NCBI GenBank assembly: GCA_016839555.1
Contig: JAEOUA010000008.1
Coordinates: 160,001-224,000 of the forward strand
Origin: Promethearchaeota archaeon
GTDB taxonomy: Archaea; Asgardarchaeota; Lokiarchaeia; Sigyniarchaeales; SOKP01
Length of the DNA: 64,000 nt
Direction: 5' to 3'
The position numbers and the translations under genes are program-made. Below are positions 777 to 58,752 of this stretch, piece after piece. Every line of letters begins with the position of its first letter. The stretch's first letter is position 1. The notes beneath the pieces were generated by a model. That model saw only the letters and a program-made list of their open reading frames with translations, had not been told where the DNA came from and did no database searches.

Positions 777-1772
777 ATGAAGCTCGAAGAAAAAGTTGGA
801 TCTTATTTAGATGATATTAAAAAACTACCAGGAGTGGAGAATGTCGTTCTAACCCAGAGAGACGGAAATCCAATTCATTCTTCAGGAGTATGGCTTAGTA
901 AGGATGAGATCTTTAATGTCTGTTCAGCAGCTAGCGCTATTTATAATGTTGGGATAAAATTACATCCAAAAAATCTAAAATATATTCTCATTGAGGGAAA
1001 GAAAGCAAAGATTCTTATTGTTCCTTTGAATAATCCAGTCCATGAATCGCTAAACAGATATCTTGAACAGTCAGAAGCTAATATCCATGAATTTTTTATA
1101 AGCATAACGGCCCAACCACAAGTAAATTTAGGGAGTATCTTTCTGCAAACAAATAACTGTTTAAGTTCAATTAAAACTACCTTGCTAAATTCAGGGCAAA
1201 CATTTAAACCTCCTCTAATCGAATATGACGAAATTAAATTGCAAGAAATTTTAAATCGATTTAAAATTAAAGACGACGAAGAAGAAAGTTATAATTTTTC
1301 TTCAATTCTTTTTAATATTTCAGAAGAATTATCGTGGGAATTAAATAAAATATTAAAAAACTTTTCAACTTTAGTTTTAGATCTTAACTATGCTTTTTTA
1401 TCTATAGAAGGAGGTTTTATATTATCAAAAATCTTAAAGAATTTAAAATTACCTGATAGAATTATTGACAACATTTCTGCAATGAGTTATTCGCTTTTTC
1501 ACGTAGCAAATAGATGTGCATGGTTATTAAAAAAAATGAATGCTGAAAATATATTATTAGAATGTAATAACACTTTTCACTTTATAAACAAAATCAATGA
1601 AGGTGTTTTTTCTTCTGAAATCAGAAAAGGGCGACAAAAATTGGGTTTAATACGACTTTATTTGCCGCAATTTTTAAAAAAAATCTCTACGGTATTATCA
1701 AGTGTAGAACATGATCAAAAACATGAATCATTTGACGTTAACAAATTTTTAGATAATATGACTATTAAATAA
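777..1772 (+). CDS. Tandem Roadblock/LC7 (MglB-like) domain protein
   Basis: Two Roadblock-like units (PGVENVVLTQRDGNPI..SAASAIY..ILIEG; YAFLSIEGGFI..SAMSYSL..ILLEC..KLGLIRL); upstream of MglA-like GTPase; ATG 777 preferred over TTG 753. Confidence 0.85.
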   Translation: MKLEEKVGSYLDDIKKLPGVENVVLTQRDGNPIHSSGVWLSKDEIFNVCSAASAIYNVGIKLHPKNLKYILIEGKKAKILIVPLNNPVHESLNRYLEQSEANIHEFFISITAQPQVNLGSIFLQTNNCLSSIKTTLLNSGQTFKPPLIEYDEIKLQEILNRFKIKDDEEESYNFSSILFNISEELSWELNKILKNFSTLVLDLNYAFLSIEGGFILSKILKNLKLPDRIIDNISAMSYSLFHVANRCAWLLKKMNAENILLECNNTFHFINKINEGVFSSEIRKGRQKLGLIRLYLPQFLKKISTVLSSVEHDQKHESFDVNKFLDNMTIK

Positions 1773-41521: not shown

Positions 41522-44374
41522 TTAAAAAAATTTCTCATCGTATTTATTAAATCGTCTTTTTATGGCAGATCTTCCTCCTTCCAATTTTAGAATGGAATCA
41601 ATACAACTCTCAAATCCTCCATATTTCTCAATCTCCCCAACTTCTCTATCTTCTTTCGGTCGGGTTTCTAAATGGTATAGGAGGTCCACATCTCCCAGTG
41701 TGGGGATATTAGGATTATGAGTTGCTACGATGATTTGTCTTTTTTGTTTCACGTCTAACAAATATTTTGAAAATTTCCTTATTGATTCTTGATCTAGCTC
41801 AGAATCCGCTTGATCTATTAGAAATGGAATTCTCTCTTCTAAAAGCATGATATATAGCAGAATAGCGCATCTTTCACCTATAGATACTTTACTTATATGA
41901 TAATGCCTGCTTAAGCCGCTCCTTCTATACGAAATCACGGGTTTTGAATCGATGTATGTTTTAAATAGTTCTATTAATGAATTATCGAATCTCTTTGGGG
42001 TATCATCATTTTTTATCAGTTCTTTTAATTTGTTTATCAAGACATGGTATTTCGACGGTATAATTTGCGATATTTGTTTTGCGTGTTTATTAATTATATC
42101 ATTTATAAGCTCAAAAGGTAAAAATTTATTGTGTATGATTTTTAATACTTCTTTTTTACCTCCTGAGTGAAATTTTTTTAACCAGTTGTAATATAGACTC
42201 TGTTTAAGATTTTTTGGTCTTGCTTTCATTCTTATTTTTGCTTTAATCTCCCATTCATTAATTCTTCTTTCAATGTTTTTTACAGCCTTTCGTCTTTTTA
42301 TCCGTATTTCAAGTGTTGTGTCAAATACTTTCTTGGCTAATTCATATAATTTTGTTTCCAGGATTCGTATATTTCTTTTAATCTTTGCAAAACTTTTTAA
42401 ATCTTCTTTCAATTCTTTCTTGATATCTTTTAGATTCAATACATCTTCTTGAAGCTTCAAAAGATACTTTATATCATACATTTCTAATATATCTTCGTAT
42501 TCCTTATTTTTTTTACCATAAAATAAATTCCATTCATTTAATAAGTCTTCATAATCTTTTTTAATTCTATTCTTTTTAATCGATAATATTTCCTTTATTT
42601 TATTTTGAAGTTGAATAATATTCTCATAAAAGTTATTAAATTTATTGATTAATTTATTGATCTCCTTTTTAAAATCCGAATTAATTGAGGAAAATGCATC
42701 AGCCTTAAAACTTAGATTTAAGTTCGATATTAATCGTTCAATCCAGTCATTTATTTTTATTTTTCTACTGTTTAATTCTGAATTAAATGAGATTAATGAT
42801 TCATATTTGTCTAAATTGAGTTTTTTCAGGATTTTTGTATGGGTTTCTTTTTTTTTTATTCTTTCGTTAATATCATAAATATTATTCTTGACCTCTTGTA
42901 GATTATCAAACTCATTATATTTCTCAGCCAATATCTTTTGCATTTTGGAGATTTCAGCAATAATATTATTCCTTTCCTTTTTTTCTGAAAAATCTTCTAT
43001 AAACTTGTCAACAATGTTTAATAGAGAACTGGTTTTTTTATGTAATCGAGGGATTTCAGTTTGACTCAAAGCTTCTATTTGTATGTTTTTTATAATTTCT
43101 TCTTGTTCTATTTCATAAAAAGTTCCTTGAGGGCTTAACTTATAAAATTCTCTTATAACATCATTTTCCCATTGTATTTCTTTAGTATCTTCTTGAATTA
43201 ATAATGTATTACTAATAGCAATAATATCATCATTGTCTTTGATAAATATTACTACTTTACCTTCATTTCCTAATTGCATCAAGATTTTGTTATTAAAGAT
43301 ATCTAAACATTCTTTATCCTCCGTAATGGACATTAATCCGAATCTTATGATATCAACAATGAATGATTTACCTGTGCCACGCCCCCCGATCAATACATTT
43401 AATTCGGGATTAAATCTAAAATATTTTTCTTTAAAGAACAATCCATTTACATAAAACCCAACTATGTATGGATTTTCGCGAACCCCGTCTAGAGCCGTTT
43501 TTACCCTTGTTTCAAAATCATATTCAATCTGTTTTAATCCTGTAATATTTTTTTCAGAAAGTTTCAAATATACGGTACCAATATTACAATACTCATATAA
43601 TGGGCAGGAAGGGCAAATTGAGTAAATTTTATCAAGAAGTGATGTATCGTGTGCATCTGAGGCTTTTATCTTTGCAAGGTTTCTAAGCTCTTCTATGTCA
43701 TGGAATTTCTGTGGTGTTTCTGTAAAGGTTTTCGGACAATTTTTATGTGGATTTAGACTTTTTGCTCCTATTGATGGTTTTCCTAAATTCCATAATCTTG
43801 TTAAAGGGCTTTTAACATATGTGATTAATGCCTCTCCTGTGACGTTTTTTGTAATTCCCTCTTCTCCTAGAGGATGAGGAAAGAATCCTATTACCTAATA
43901 ATTTGAAAAATCCTTTCTGAAATCATCTTTATTTCCCGATAAGCTTTTGTCTATTATATCCCCGTGATCTTTATTATTTTCATTAGGTTGGTCTTTCTTC
44001 CTTCCTATAGCACCTAGTAAATTACTAATATTTGATTCTGAAATATTTTGACCGTTAAAGATTATTGAAAAATGAGTATTTGATGAATCCTTCAATTCTA
44101 TACAAGGGAGAAATGTTATATCCGTATCGCGTTTTGTATTTAAGTTATTAAGAATTTCAATACCGCTTTTCAAATCCTTTAAATCCTTTTGCCTATGGAC
44201 CGTTAGACCAACGAGTTGAATTTTATGTTTTATTAGAATGTCGTATAGATCATTGCAATAATCTCCAATTGGAGTTTGTTCAGGTATCTCGAAATGTAAA
44301 TGTAAATCTGACTTATAAAATTGAGAGCCAATATGTTGCTCTATTAAATTTTTATAAACTTCTTCAATTTGCAT
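41522..44374 (-). pseudogene. PHP + SMC-like/ABC ATPase (TrlF/Ppl-like) interrupted by one in-frame TAG
   Basis: FYKSDLHLH, FPHP and ASDAH PHP motifs; GGRGTGKS, SIGE, IDQAD, ATHN, LEGG; single frame with TAG at 43895-43897. Confidence 0.85.
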
Positions 44375-44849: not shown

Positions 44850-45821
44850 ATGATATTAACTGCCCCAAGAGACAAGACAAAAAAAAGACTTTTCGCTGTT
44901 TCGGGTAATAAATGCTATTTCCCTAACTGTAATACTCCACTAGTTGATTTAGAGAGTGGAACTGTAACTGGAGAAATTTGCCATATTAAAGGTAAAAAAC
45001 CAGATTCTCCAAGGTAAGATCCCAACCAATCTGATGAGGAAAGACACGGATTTAACAACCTTATCCTTATGTGTGGATTTCACCATAAAGTAATAGATGA
45101 TGATCCAGATTCGTACACAGTTTCTCGATTGTTGGATATAAAGAAAACTCATGAACAATCAAACATTAGGGGTAAAGAACTAAGCGATAATGCTACTAAT
45201 TTATTTATAAAAAATGTTACTGACGATTCTATAATCTTTACACAGGATCAGAAAGGAGGGCAAGTCGCACATTCAATAATTAATATTAATTATAAGAATC
45301 GAGATAATATTGATAAAGAGAATAAGGATCGTTTAAAACAAGAAATAGTCAGAACCTTTGAAGAGGGTGATCTTCGATCATTTTATGCTTCAATTTTTGA
45401 TTTTGGGTTTAAGGAAATAACTAGAATCTTACAATGGATTGTAATTGAATCGTATGATGCATATAATGACGGTGTTAATATAGTTCAATTAGTAATTGAT
45501 AAGGGTGATAGAAGAGATGAAAAAGTGGGGGATATGATATTTCACAGGGGTATTGAAAAATATGAGATTCAATTTAGTCCAACAACTTGCCAAATTTTTT
45601 TTGATGTCCGACAATTTTCATGGTTTAATAAAGAGGGTAAAATAATTTTTGCTGGCGGATGGGATAGCCAATATTATGGTAGTTTGATGATGATGTATTT
45701 TAACAACCAAACGCAAAGATATGGATGGCATTCGGTTGAAAGACCTGATATTGAAGATCGAAGTGAAGAAGCAAGGAATAATATACTCATATATTTGAAA
45801 GAAAAATTAGGTGTAAATTGA
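44850..45821 (+). pseudogene. HNH endonuclease-domain protein with premature TAA
   Basis: ATG 44850: KRLFAVSGNKCYFPNC..EICHI..PR*DPNQ..NLILMCGFHHKVID; TAA at 45015-45017 where the paralogue has TAT. Confidence 0.88.
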
Positions 45822-48449: not shown

Positions 48450-49823
48450 AAGATAATAATTCAAGAGGATATTACACCTATTGATGAGAAAAGTGTAATT
48501 AAGTCTCTTCAACCTGATAAGGCAGCTGATGATGAAATAAAATTAGAGTGTAATATTCAAAAAAGTAATTGGAATAAAATAAAGACATATTTACAAAATC
48601 ACATAAATAATCTTTTTAATGAGAAGGAATATTATCAATTTGCAATATCTTCACTTGCTCGGATCTCGTGTGCCGTGTATTTGGGATATCTCCTTACAAA
48701 TCGTGTTAAAATTAGATATTCTCAATATCAAAGTGATTCACAGGTCTGGAATTGGTTAAAGGCTTTAGATAATTTAGACTTACCTAAATTACATACTTCG
48801 GGCTTGATAAAGAAAGAAAAGAGCAAGATTAACGAAATTATTATAAAAATATCTCTTTCAGCGAAAATTTTAGATGACCAAATCAACGAATTAGAATTGG
48901 ATATAAGAGATAAGATTGAAATTACTATAGATAACCCTTCGGAAGATTGGCTTAAATCAGAGAGTCAAATAGTTGATCTCGGTAAGTCATTTAGGGAAAT
49001 CCTAACCAATCTAAGGATAAATACTCCTAACTTAAATAAGATTCATTTATTCTATGCCGATCCAACTGCAGGTGCGATTGTGATAGGAAGACAAATCAAT
49101 CCTAGTATGAATCCCATAGTTCAACTCTATGAGTTTGATAGAAAAAAAGTTCCTAATTATCAAAAAATTCGAGATCAACTCGAAAAACCAACTGTTTATT
49201 ATGCAGGCTCTTTTCGAAAGAAAACTATGATTAATGTTAGTTATGATCTTGACATTATCCTATATTGGTCATCAAAGGCTTCCAGTACAATTAAAGAGTT
49301 TTATACTAAAGTTGGTATGGAGTTACAAAGGAATTGGAAAAGATTACGAGCAAAAAAAGTTGGATGGGAAATAGTTTTTAAAGGGGATTTTCATATTGAT
49401 GTAATATCAGGTAAAAGAAAGCATAAGAGTTATCGGGAAGCTTATTTATATAATCGAGAGATTGATGGAAAGTTTCTAACAAGCATAAATAAGCAAGTGA
49501 ATTATATAAAACGCCGTCGGCGAGGTGATGTTATCAAATTAATCAAACTATGGAAAAAAAGAAAATAAGTTCCTATTAAAACTTTTATATTAGAACTAAT
49601 GGTTGTTCGAGGGTGTAAAGATTTGCCTCGTAAAGAACTTGAACCTCAATTAGGAGGAGCACTTAAATATATATCAGATAATATTACTAAAATTAGACTT
49701 GAAGACCCAGCTAATCCTCAAAATATTATTTCAGACGATCTAACGAAGGAGGAAAAGAATCGTATTAGAAACCTTGCAAATCAAGCTTTAAATGCTAAAA
49801 ATTGGAATCAAGTGTTTTTTTAA
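48450..49823 (+). pseudogene. CBASS remnant: SAVED domain fused in frame to an N-truncated CD-NTase, with premature TAA
   Basis: SAVED: LA.I..VYLGYLL..YSQY..W.W, IHLFYA.P..AI.IGRQIN..VQLYEF; CD-NTase: GSFRKKT..YDLDI, IDVI, LIKLWK, LEDPANP.N; TAA at 49566-49568 with the frame continuing. Confidence 0.85.
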
Positions 49824-52655: not shown

Positions 52656-54497
52656 TTAGTATGTATAAAGATGTAGTTTAAATTTTGCTCTTGAACCTCC
52701 AATATATTTATCTCTCTTTAAATCTACTGATGTGTTTTTATTTAACAATAAGAAAACGATATCTCGTTCCAAACCTTTAAACCCTTGTATTGTTTTAAAG
52801 AGAGTCAAATAGTCTCCATTAATTTGTAGTCTCTTTCTTAATAAGGGGAGCTCCCTAATTTTATTGGGTTCTATGATGATAATCCTATTTACTGTACCTT
52901 GATCTTTCAGATAATAAACTTTATAGTACGAAAACTGTTGTCTGTATGCATTAGGTAAAATTTTATTCAATTTTTCATTTGAAAGAATTAAAATTTGGTC
53001 ATCCTTAATTCCATTATTCAAATATTTTTTCTTAATATATGCAATTGAATAGTGAAGAGCTTTTTTTCCAGAAGAGAAATGTTTTGCGCTCACTTTTAAT
53101 CCATTAATTTCAGAATAAGAAGAATAATTACCCAAATGTGTAGCATTTTTTATCCATTTTCCTATTTCAACCGTATTTCTGAGATTTTTATCTAATACAA
53201 TTAAATCTTGATCAGGGTTCATTCCAAATTGCGTTGAAATAAATTTATTAGTAAAAAGATTTTGAGATTCATCAAAAAAGATATATAGTATTGATTTTTT
53301 CTGATTTTTGAGCATTCTTCTAATAAGTGATGCAAGATCCGGATGAATATCCTGGGCTTCATCTATTAAAATTGCATCATAAATTTGTATTTCTGAAATA
53401 TCATCGAGGTTTTCGTTTAAAATATTTGCACTTTTTTCGAATTGAAAATTATTATTAAAGAAATATAATTGCTGCAAATCTTTCCCCCCTAGTAATGCTT
53501 TAGCAAGAATTTTTATAAGACTATGCAAAGTTAATATCGATATTTTTGTGGCCAATTTATCTGAATCAATATTTAATTTTTCGCATAGATACGATTCAAT
53601 TGAATCTCTCAATTCTTTATTAAAGCATAAAAAGAGAGTTTTTTTATCTTCTTTATATAATTGTATAGCTTTTTTCATTGCTATAAAAGTTTTTCCCGAA
53701 CCCGCGCTTCCTTTGAACATGCAATGCTTTTTCTGAGAGAGGGATGTTAACAAATAATCTTGAACTTGATTTAACTTTTCTAACTGTTGTTCTCTGATTT
53801 CATAGTAATGTTTTATATTTACATAAGTATTTATAGAAGGTGTGATAAGTTTTAAGAAAAAGGGTTTTATATTGGGATTAAAAACTCGATTGTTATAGAC
53901 CTCTAATAACGAAATTAAATAGTCTTCAAGTGGAGAAGGACCTATTTTCCCTATTCGTTTCCAATTATTTTCATCCTCTAAATCAGAGTAATCAAAAATT
54001 TTTGAAGGGGGTAAAGAGAGGGAAAAATCGTCTTTTATTTGGCAATCGGGAAAGAAGCACCCACAATTATAAGAAAGTGGAAAATCTAATCGCCCATTAA
54101 CATTTTTTAATAAATGGTTTTTATCAGCATTCTGGGAAGCTTTATTGATATATAAGTCTTTAATAAAATACATTGATTTCTGAGCTTGCCGTAATGGATT
54201 TGCTTTAAGCTGATGTTTTCTATTTGAAAGTAGTTCCCTTGAGTGATAACGATTATTTTCGAAAGTGATTAAGCCACCTTTTGCCTCGATTATCAAGAAG
54301 CCATAATTCGCATTAAAAATAAGAAAATCTGCCTCTCCGTGCTCTTTTCTTAAATCGCTTGCCCATTCGATTGAGTGCCATGCATACCAATCATTACTTA
54401 AATCATCCAACAAGGTATAAAATTTGATTTCTGATCTTGGTAGGTTTTTACTTCGTTGTTGTAATTCTTGTAATGTTTCTGGATATTTATGTACCAT
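52656..54497 (-). CDS. NERD nuclease + UvrD/SF1-like helicase fusion
   Basis: GEADFLI..IIEAKGG; GSAGSGKT, DEAQD, NLRNT, FKGLE, SRA. Confidence 0.92.
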   Translation of the reverse strand: MVHKYPETLQELQQRSKNLPRSEIKFYTLLDDLSNDWYAWHSIEWASDLRKEHGEADFLIFNANYGFLIIEAKGGLITFENNRYHSRELLSNRKHQLKANPLRQAQKSMYFIKDLYINKASQNADKNHLLKNVNGRLDFPLSYNCGCFFPDCQIKDDFSLSLPPSKIFDYSDLEDENNWKRIGKIGPSPLEDYLISLLEVYNNRVFNPNIKPFFLKLITPSINTYVNIKHYYEIREQQLEKLNQVQDYLLTSLSQKKHCMFKGSAGSGKTFIAMKKAIQLYKEDKKTLFLCFNKELRDSIESYLCEKLNIDSDKLATKISILTLHSLIKILAKALLGGKDLQQLYFFNNNFQFEKSANILNENLDDISEIQIYDAILIDEAQDIHPDLASLIRRMLKNQKKSILYIFFDESQNLFTNKFISTQFGMNPDQDLIVLDKNLRNTVEIGKWIKNATHLGNYSSYSEINGLKVSAKHFSSGKKALHYSIAYIKKKYLNNGIKDDQILILSNEKLNKILPNAYRQQFSYYKVYYLKDQGTVNRIIIIEPNKIRELPLLRKRLQINGDYLTLFKTIQGFKGLERDIVFLLLNKNTSVDLKRDKYIGGSRAKFKLHLYTY

Positions 54498-54604
54498 TAA
54501 AAACGCCTAACATTTAATTTCTTGCTATATATAATTATATTCTAACCCTTCTATTTAAATGAAAAACTCCTATTAATTAGTAATTTAATGATTATTCTTG
54601 GATA

Positions 54605-54755
54605 CGCAGCACCCCCATTTACATAGGGAAGATTTTTTCCCTAAAATTTTAAAGAAAGAATTCTTCATATTACCCCTGCATACATAGGGAAAAGCAAATA
54701 TACTATTTTTTTTCGTTCTTTAAATACGCTACACCCCTATATGCATAAGGAAAAA
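54605..54755 (-). CRISPR. Orphan degenerate type I-E-like mini-array (3 repeats, 2 spacers)
   Basis: 29-nt units at 54605, 54666, 54727 (exact 61-bp period, 32-nt spacers); minus strand reads TTTTTCCTTATGCATATAGGGGTGTAGCG / CTTTTCCCTATGTATGCAGGGGTAATATG / ATCTTCCCTATGTAAATGGGGGTGCTGCG, each with a 7-position stem and 4-nt loop. Confidence 0.7.
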
Positions 54756-54914
54756 ACTATAATTTTTATTAGAATTACCAATTACACTATACATTTTAGT
54801 TATTTTTAATCTCAGTATTTGGATGAGCGGAAACTTCATTGTTTATATTTATATAAATCTATGTTTTTTTATTAGAAAAAGACTATTTAAAAATCGGGTT
54901 TTTAATATAAAAAA

Positions 54915-57845: not shown

Positions 57846-58752
57846 TTAAACTTCTCTTGAGAACCGTTCTCTAGGAAAACGAGGATTCCAATTTACCCCT
57901 GTTTGCTCACATACATTCTGAAAAATCTTTAGTATCTCTTTTCTTTTTGAATCAAACCAGAACATTAGACCTTGTTCTTTCCGTATAGTCTCTCTCCTTT
58001 CACTTCTTACATCAGAAGCAAATACATCTCGAATATCACGAAGAATGTTTACAATAATCTCGATTTTATCTCTTAAATTTTTATCTGAAAGATATGACAT
58101 TCCTTTTGAGGATGCTACTTTTTTTCCATTTCTCGTAAATAGAGTACCTGTATTAAATGCGGTTATTGTATCCTCCATTGCTTTATCAAAATCTATATAA
58201 GACCTTTCCATTATGAAGAGATCTTGAAATGCTGGGCGATCAAGGCAAGATGCAAAAAATCTAATTATCTCCTTATCTTGTTTTTTCTCTGAATCAATAT
58301 CATCTTTATAGTTAATATTAATAATAGAATGGGCAACTTGTCCACCTTTTTGATCCACTGTAGATATTTTAGACTCTTGTGAAAGATTAAAAATAAATTG
58401 TTCTACAATTTCTTTACTTGGTTTAATGCCTTTAAGGTTTTTTTTTTCGTGCTCAGCTTTAATTTCTTTTAATTTAGAAACGGTATATAAATCCAGGTCA
58501 TTATCTATTATATCGTGGTGAATAGGACACATTAAAAGTAAATTGTCAAATCCGTGTCTTTCTTCATCATTCTGGTTGCTATCATATCTTGGAGCTCCTG
58601 ATCTATTACCTTTAATATGACAGATTTCACCAGTAACTTTACCACTCTCTTCATCTACAAGATTATTTTTGCAATAAGGAAAATAACATTCATTACCTGA
58701 CACTGCAAATAATCTCTTAATTGTTTTTTGGGCGAGGATAGGTTAGGGGCAT
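57846..58752 (-). pseudogene. HNH endonuclease-domain protein with 5' homopolymer frameshift
   Basis: ATG 58752; removing one base from T6 at 58724-58729 gives MPLTYPRPKTIKRLFAVSGN, matching paralogue MILTAPRDKTKKRLFAVSGN; CYFPYC..ICHI..NLLLMCPIHH. May still be expressed from GTG 58703. Confidence 0.8.

Follow-up and report, generated by a model that had tools for sequence, protein, structure and literature searches.

The DNA analyzed here is a 64,000-nucleotide stretch (64 kb) of the genome of a Promethearchaeota archaeon, referred to below as the window. It contains three similar 29-nt units just upstream of a gene for a nuclease-helicase, and the locus raises the question of what these units are and whether they have anything to do with the gene that follows them. 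A preliminary description had taken them for a type I-E-like CRISPR mini-array without cas genes and had proposed two roles for it: a Cas6-processed regulatory leader of the helicase gene or a source of guide RNA partnered with the helicase.

A repeat search of the window returned three 29-nt copies starting at 54602, 54663, and 54724, with start-to-start distances of 61 and 61 nt and 66–79% identity to the reference copy. Placed in a type I-E frame (5 nt, one arm of a 6-bp stem, a 4-nt loop, the second arm of the 6-bp stem, and an 8-nt tail), the units occupy positions 54605–54633 (W1), 54666–54694 (W2), and 54727–54755 (W3) and share 19–21 of 29 positions pairwise. The number of units, the exact 61-bp period, and the outer limits of 54605 and 54755 are identical to those given in the preliminary description. 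Read on the minus strand, each unit has a T-rich 5-nt flank, a 6-bp stem starting from CCC, a 4-nt loop, a return to GGG, and the 8-nt tail. W1 and W3 form on this strand a full 7-pair hairpin, including a flanking U-G pair and with two pairs being G-U, and RNAfold reproduces the 7-pair hairpin for both. W2, the most degenerate repeat, forms six of the seven pairs, with one stem mismatch, and has a diverged 3' tail. On the plus strand, the G-U pairs of the hairpin turn into A-C mismatches. The W1 and W3 hairpins are retained through G-U pairs and one compensatory T-A closing pair.

Between the units lie two 32-nt sequences, spacer 1 at 54695–54726 (16% GC) and spacer 2 at 54634–54665 (19% GC), both read on the minus strand. 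In the crRNA sense, W3 would be the leader-proximal repeat and W1, which has a GTAA tetraloop, the trailer-side repeat. The AT-rich stretch at 54756–54900 (minus strand), which contains no ORF, would be the leader side, as judged from the I-E orientation of the units.

A search of Rfam at gathering and permissive thresholds assigned the units neither to CRISPR-DR nor to any other family. Therefore, we used custom covariance models. The first, R1, was built from six Cas6e-linked repeats of other organisms, and the whole 64-kb window was scored with it with the filters off. It matched W1 (24.8 bits, E = 6.8e-6), W3 (24.1 bits, E = 1.2e-5), and W2 (19.6 bits, E = 4.7e-4), each of them a full-length match in exact register on the minus strand. 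Because R1 finds exactly these three sites in 64 kb, the next match having an E value of 0.34, the sites exceed chance occurrence. The second model, R2, drew solely on Asgard arrays found by way of Cas6e and is therefore not circular. It ranked W1 (E = 1e-4) and W3 (E = 1.9e-4, or 2e-4 when rounded) on top, with W2 at noise level and yet in exact register. The comparison with CRISPR repeat families that had been suggested for these units was therefore negative for Rfam CRISPR-DR and positive for the models made from Cas6e-linked repeats.

We derived a two-repeat pattern from the units of the window and those of a related array in a genome of the same genus (G003, described below) and scanned 185,579 species genomes with it. 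The pattern was present solely in G003, Ligilactobacillus equi, and a Mucispirillaceae MAG. A scan of JGI metagenomes returned six contigs, whereas a viral contig collection contained 0 arrays of this pattern. All arrays from the species-genome and metagenome scans have a 61-bp period, and those of L. equi, the Mucispirillaceae MAG, and one contig (L094) adjoin genes for Cas6e (PF08798), Cas7e (PF09344), Cas5, Cse1, or Cas1. A family search made without the repeat pattern detected Cas6e in 10 of 400 Asgard genomes, all of them in the order of the window's genome and three in its family, and the arrays on these contigs consist of 29-nt repeats with a 61-bp period. Their repeats are identical to one unit of the G003 array (Ge) at up to 23 of 29 positions, one of the differences being a compensatory stem pair, and to the window units at 19–20 of 29.

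In type I-E systems, the 8-nt 3' tail of the repeat becomes the 5' handle of the crRNA, and Cas6e cuts the transcript into crRNAs of ~61 nt. The window array has in common with the type I-E arrays of Escherichia coli, Thermus, and Lactobacillus, and with those of three Lokiarchaeial loci (L077, L079, and L083), the 29-nt repeat, the unique 32-nt spacer, and the whole order of 5-nt flank, 6-bp stem from CCC, tetraloop, GGG-ending stem, and 8-nt tail. It differs from them in having three units that are 66–79% alike instead of near-identical repeats, in its very AT-rich spacers without found targets, and in having no I-E cas genes nearby or in the assembly. With a type I-E period, a palindrome followed by the 8-nt tail, a relation to Cas6e-linked repeats, and unique spacers, the array departs from the type in the low identity of its repeats. 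The identification of W1–W3 as type I-E CRISPR repeats, made from sequence comparison, is well supported. These data are in agreement with the I-E-like layout proposed earlier, which is borne out by the geometry, the period, and the match to Cas6e-linked repeats.

The genome that carries the window is a MAG of 3.74 Mb on 12 contigs with 29% GC, 92% completeness, and 6% contamination. We found no match to the Cas6e, Cas7e, Cas1, Cas2, or Cas6 families (including PF08798, PF09344, PF01867, and PF09827) in this 92% complete genome. A tblastn search likewise returned no cas gene or fragment from the 3.74 Mb on 12 contigs; the queries were all ORFs of 100 aa or more in eight Asgard I-E loci. Permissive tblastn of window positions 49–60 kb, to which the ORFs of three bacterial or metagenomic I-E loci were added, gave spurious matches of ORFs running through the array alone. 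It revealed no cas remnant within 11 kb of the array, and none on the presumed leader side at 54756–54900. A 79-aa ORF upstream of the array was considered as a Cas2-like candidate and rejected, as neither the Pfam search nor tblastn supported it. The absence of cas genes from the window, already remarked upon in the preliminary description, thus extends to the surroundings of the array, and the proposed search for I-E cas genes elsewhere in the genome detected none in the assembly.

The same genome (G000) contains a CRISPR locus of another kind on contig C6. A 19-unit array at C6:1–1400, with a 37-nt repeat ending in GATTGAAAT, reaches the contig edge, and at C6:3411–8074, beside this array, large proteins with two RAMP domains each are encoded, which makes the locus type III-like. 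The resident 37-nt repeat is unrelated to the 29-nt unit. Because no I-E cas match was found genome-wide and the resident locus is of a different kind, the window array appears to be an orphan with respect to its own type, with the reservation that a variable I-E island could be missing from the MAG.

We assessed the array for signs of function. The preliminary description held that substitutions in the units mostly preserve pairing. This is correct as a count, with 91% of cells in the hairpin being paired. However, shuffled alignments reach an equal value in 258 of 500 cases, and one pair alone has changed on both sides. These column shuffles gave neither significant covariation nor other statistical support for selection on an RNA structure in the hairpin. 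Hairpin stability is a weak signal as well, with z values of −1.7 for W1 (MFE −8.3 kcal/mol) and −0.5 and −0.65 for the other two units. In the MFE fold of 303 nt, the W1 hairpin gives way to a pairing that involves the end of spacer 2. At 54623–54647, the 5' stem arm of W1 recurs in inverted form over 7 bp in the 3' end of spacer 2 (also recorded as palindrome I6), and the two can pair into an alternative hairpin. A strand asymmetry of the wobble pairs, 7 in the sense against 2–4 in the antisense direction, was considered as a further signal and discarded, the numbers being too few for significance.

The spacers were examined in the same way. Their pairwise identity is no higher than that of shuffled sequences. 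Because they are unique, the earlier worry that the similar DNA preceding two of the units might betray a partial tandem duplication fails. Neither spacer has a target in its own genome above shuffled controls, and no target was found in phage and plasmid collections. The best partial matches are at the level of shuffled spacers, and matches of ~10 nt are indistinguishable from chance in DNA of 29% GC, so that the spacer search recommended in the preliminary description returned nothing above chance. Spacer GC is 16–25%, compared with 34% in the genome's intact array. We considered this low GC as a sign that the repeats had been selectively retained, but it is suggestive at most, since its weight depends on the original composition of the spacers. 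The strict 61-bp phasing was also rejected as a mark of constraint. A pseudogenized copy of the helicase gene in the same window has 110 mismatches and 1 gap in 526 nt, indicating that indels are rare here anyway, and the phasing is therefore uninformative.

The 19.5 kb around the array have no DNA counterpart in six other genomes of the genus, save for the helicase gene and a few short fragments. The region contains defense-type genes or their remnants, namely a TrlF-like ATPase, a SAVED-cyclase fragment, and the pseudogenized copy of the helicase C terminus. The ATPase, a 681-aa protein of the TrlF family or SMC-like type encoded at 41522–43567 (minus strand), matches its NCBIfam model at 1.5e-54, below the curated cut-off. 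An ORF of 297 aa at 48675–49568 (plus strand) resembles the C-terminal part of a SAVED effector in its first half and the N-terminal part of a CBASS cyclase in its second half, and has the appearance of a fused CBASS operon remnant. The pseudogene at 40924–41528 (minus strand) corresponds to the C-terminal third of the helicase, with 67% amino acid identity, 79% DNA identity, and eight stop codons. Two inverted segments of ~450 bp, at 44874–45325 and 58282–58727, are 69% identical, overlap unannotated paralogous genes (250 and 285 aa), and bracket a 13-kb stretch with the CBASS remnant, a gene for a 672-aa protein, the helicase gene, and the array. They might delimit a composite element. No integrase, tRNA, viral, or other mobile-element hallmark was found near the window's array.

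The related array in G003, at C68:10265–10719, has the same repeat subtype and consists of six good and two degenerate units, with a period of 61 six times and 60 once. Its repeats also diverge among themselves. One of its units, Gd, is identical to W3 at 25 of 29 positions. The two arrays have no spacers or leader in common, and no flanking gene either, the G003 array being followed downstream by an unrelated small ORF. It lies within an insertion of ~10 kb (locus L059, G003:C68 4512–14590) between the genes for AlaRS and FtsZ, direct neighbors in the window's own genome (C5:300.4–305.4 kb). A diverged second copy of the 5' end of the AlaRS gene (68% identity) flanks the insertion, whose cargo comprises the 8-unit I-E-type array, a 1635-aa protein without assigned function, a PLD-like protein, and a CBS-like protein. 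Because the window region is not conserved in the genus and the G003 array sits in an insertion, both arrays are in accessory DNA.

We think it likely that the array of the window is a degenerate type I-E orphan in a variable Lokiarchaeial region and that it is most likely inert, because no Cas6e or Cascade is present in the assembled genome. The array would have originated as a normal I-E array, with 29-nt palindromic repeats and unique 32-nt spacers acquired through the Cas1–Cas2 adaptation module. It would then have remained in a variable region rich in defense genes after the loss of its cas genes, or have arrived there without them. Once it was no longer accompanied by effector and adaptation genes, through loss or separation, its repeats would have ceased to be renewed and would have drifted to their present 66–79% identity, leaving AT-rich spacers without recognizable targets. 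As the assembly has no Cas6e or Cascade, any transcript would presumably not be processed into working crRNAs. Our results directly show the repeat family, the geometry, the lack of cas genes in the assembly, and the missing conservation alongside the helicase; from them, we infer a past of loss and decay and an absence of function as most likely. Three observations could speak against it. The MAG is 92% complete with 6% contamination, so the bin may have failed to capture an I-E locus; the complete hairpins of W1 and W3, with their notable G-U-only changes on the crRNA strand, together with the 25 of 29 identical positions between W3 and Gd, could reflect long-term retention; and the recurrence of orphan I-E-type units in the genus and order could point to a use.

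The main rival to an inert relic is that an unassembled or mobile I-E system uses the array in trans; a role as decoy or regulator comes next. In the former, Cas6e and Cascade from an unbinned island, a plasmid, or a virus would process the array into crRNAs for defense or for competition between mobile elements. We consider this unlikely, albeit with several points on its side. Loci with cas genes are often lost from MAG bins, and orphan arrays in some bacteria supply crRNAs in trans, but the 3.74 Mb on 12 contigs hold not even a fragment of an I-E cas gene, and the viral contig collection is devoid of the array pattern. The hairpins of W1 and W3 are intact on the crRNA strand; against this, they show no significant covariation, and the repeats have diverged strongly, including in the 8-nt tail that would have to serve as the 5' handle. 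The sister array resides on inserted DNA, as would suit a mobile system, but neither spacer of the window array finds a target in its own genome or in the phage and plasmid collections.

The distribution of such repeats in the order also bears on use in trans. I-E systems are present in the same order and family as the window's genome. Counting the window's own, 17 genomes of the order have I-E-type repeats, and Cas6e was detected in 10 genomes. Nine genomes, again with the window's own, have repeats without a Cas6e match. Among these, G110 contains an eight-unit array with 39–41 bits per unit and G039 dispersed single units, and both the nine genomes and the eight-unit array would fit arrays served by systems outside the assembled bins. 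A third genome of the genus, G006, carries a two-repeat I-E-type mini-array with a 32-nt spacer (locus L097, C429 at about 867–956, minus strand) and no Cas6e match. Its first repeat is good (32.6 bits) and its distal repeat degenerate. The repeat subtype, with a CCCCAC stem, differs from that of the window and matches the Cas6e-linked arrays of other Lokiarchaeia.

Stand-alone arrays of a recognizable type have bacterial precedents. The RliB-CRISPR of Listeria is reportedly an orphan, cas-less array that works when PNPase is available. CRISPR2 of Enterococcus faecalis is an orphan array without cas genes (PMC5491264). Like the window array, they lack the cognate cas genes and have relatives with the full system. 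Unlike it, they have well-conserved repeats and reportedly work once given a Cas protein or PNPase, whereas the window repeats are strongly diverged.

Virus- and plasmid-borne mini-arrays and RNA anti-CRISPRs have repeats that imitate those of the CRISPR system resident in their host. We find it very unlikely that the window array acts as such an RNA decoy, with transcripts that soak up or redirect I-E Cas proteins from a mobile island among I-E-bearing Lokiarchaeia, or as a regulatory mini-array that represses a gene through a partial spacer match in the manner of CreA/CreR. Degenerate repeats, AT-rich spacers without targets, and a location in accessory DNA in both genomes would fit either role, as would the two-repeat mini-array with a degenerate distal repeat in G006, and elements of this kind have been described (Shmakov et al. 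2023, PMC10120712), viral mini-arrays being discussed there as well. The window array resembles the virus- and plasmid-borne elements in having cas-less repeat-spacer units within accessory or inserted DNA, but no mobile-element hallmark gene adjoins it. The mimicry that marks RNA anti-CRISPRs is absent too: the host has an unrelated 37-nt repeat alone, in a type III-like system, which leaves nothing in the host to decoy or recruit. Regulatory mini-arrays have two repeats, are located in or next to a cas locus, and contain a spacer that partly matches a nearby promoter (PMC10120712). The window array has in common with them the small number of repeat-like units with degenerate copies, but it has three units, lies far from any cas locus of its own type, and no partial spacer target stands out. 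Cas-like genes occur solely beside the array with the 37-nt repeat, on another contig. Mini-arrays near type III loci were judged degraded and non-functional in the same survey (Shmakov et al. 2023, PMC10120712).

A broader reading joins these two possibilities. Because three genomes of the genus and nine of the order carry such arrays without a Cas6e match, cas-less I-E-type mini-arrays might be recurrent, maintained cargo of accessory islands in Lokiarchaeia, acting in trans as guides that hijack the I-E Cascades of other hosts or of co-resident elements, or as RNA decoys directed at these Cascades. We hold this to be distinctly unlikely.

The connection to the neighboring gene, which had motivated the roles first proposed for the array, survives less well. 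The gene (P0002, 52656–54497, minus strand) encodes a 613-aa protein with a NERD-like nuclease motif and an SF1 helicase core. It matches Pfam helicase families, and its homologues, labeled Lokiarchaeia, Promethearchaeota, and Heimdallarchaeaceae, carry the NERD domain PF08378. Its start codon is at 54497 (minus strand), so that 107 nt separate it from W1, and array and gene have the same orientation, as the preliminary description had stated. This co-orientation and short distance would suit a processed leader of the helicase mRNA. A supply of guide RNA would suit the best PADLOC match (RTasNERD-Hel, 8e-37; NERD+UvrD follows at 3e-24), which is the partner protein of reverse-transcriptase defense systems. 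Such systems often use non-coding RNAs, but no reverse transcriptase that could partner the helicase was found in the window's own genome.

Comparison of orthologous loci speaks against both roles. Helicase orthologues occur in 22 of 154 genomes of the order, and at the eleven loci inspected (nine, plus the extended locus of the same-genus genome G003 and that of the closest orthologue, L116, with 61% identity) no I-E unit was present upstream or nearby, so the comparison of NERD-helicase upstream regions put forward earlier turned out negative. The adjacency of array and helicase is not conserved, and the leader reading is therefore unsupported. In addition, a TATA box, TTTAAATA, lies at 54552–54559 (minus strand) between W1 and the ATG. 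An alignment of four orthologue upstream regions, the window's gene included, shows it as a conserved TTTAWATA block 55–70 nt before the start codon. The host is an archaeon, to which bacterial promoter logic is inapplicable. Because the conserved TATA box sits between the array and the start codon, archaeal promoter geometry suggests that helicase transcription most likely starts downstream of the array, from a promoter of its own. Both roles lose further ground with the sister array, which stands before a different gene, with the spacers, for which no target above chance was found, and with the missing Cas6e and Cascade. We therefore regard a role of the array as leader or guide RNA supplier for the helicase as most improbable. 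The position of the array beside the helicase is a coincidence of defense-island clustering. Directly downstream of the helicase gene, a 672-aa protein (P0001, 49880–51898, minus strand) belongs to no family in Pfam, NCBIfam, PADLOC, or PHROGs, and none of nine orthologous loci has a homologue of it within 1.5 kb of the helicase.

Finally, that the units are not CRISPR-derived at all and represent spaced protein-binding sites (iterons or operators) or a tandem-duplicated hairpin element, as a phasing of exactly 61 bp, or about six helical turns, and a location upstream of a promoter might suggest, is scarcely credible given their membership by sequence in a Cas6e-linked repeat family (R1 and R2), the unique sequences between them, and the longer array that the same type of unit forms in a different context in G003.

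As a modest result, our analysis records a type I-E orphan array in decay from an Asgard archaeon, a rather ordinary relic of CRISPR with no new guide-RNA system behind it. Its accidental position next to the helicase removes the tempting but unsupported idea of a guide RNA working with that protein. The conserved archaeal promoter block of the NERD-helicase family can be used for annotating orthologues. Orphan arrays of this kind can mislead the linking of viruses to hosts through spacers. The scattered occurrence of both I-E systems and cas-less I-E-type repeats in one Lokiarchaeial order is relevant to how CRISPR systems turn over and how genes flow among Asgard archaea. If cas-less mini-arrays did prove to be recurrent, maintained cargo of accessory islands, they would be the first RNA-level conflict element of such a kind described in Asgard archaea.
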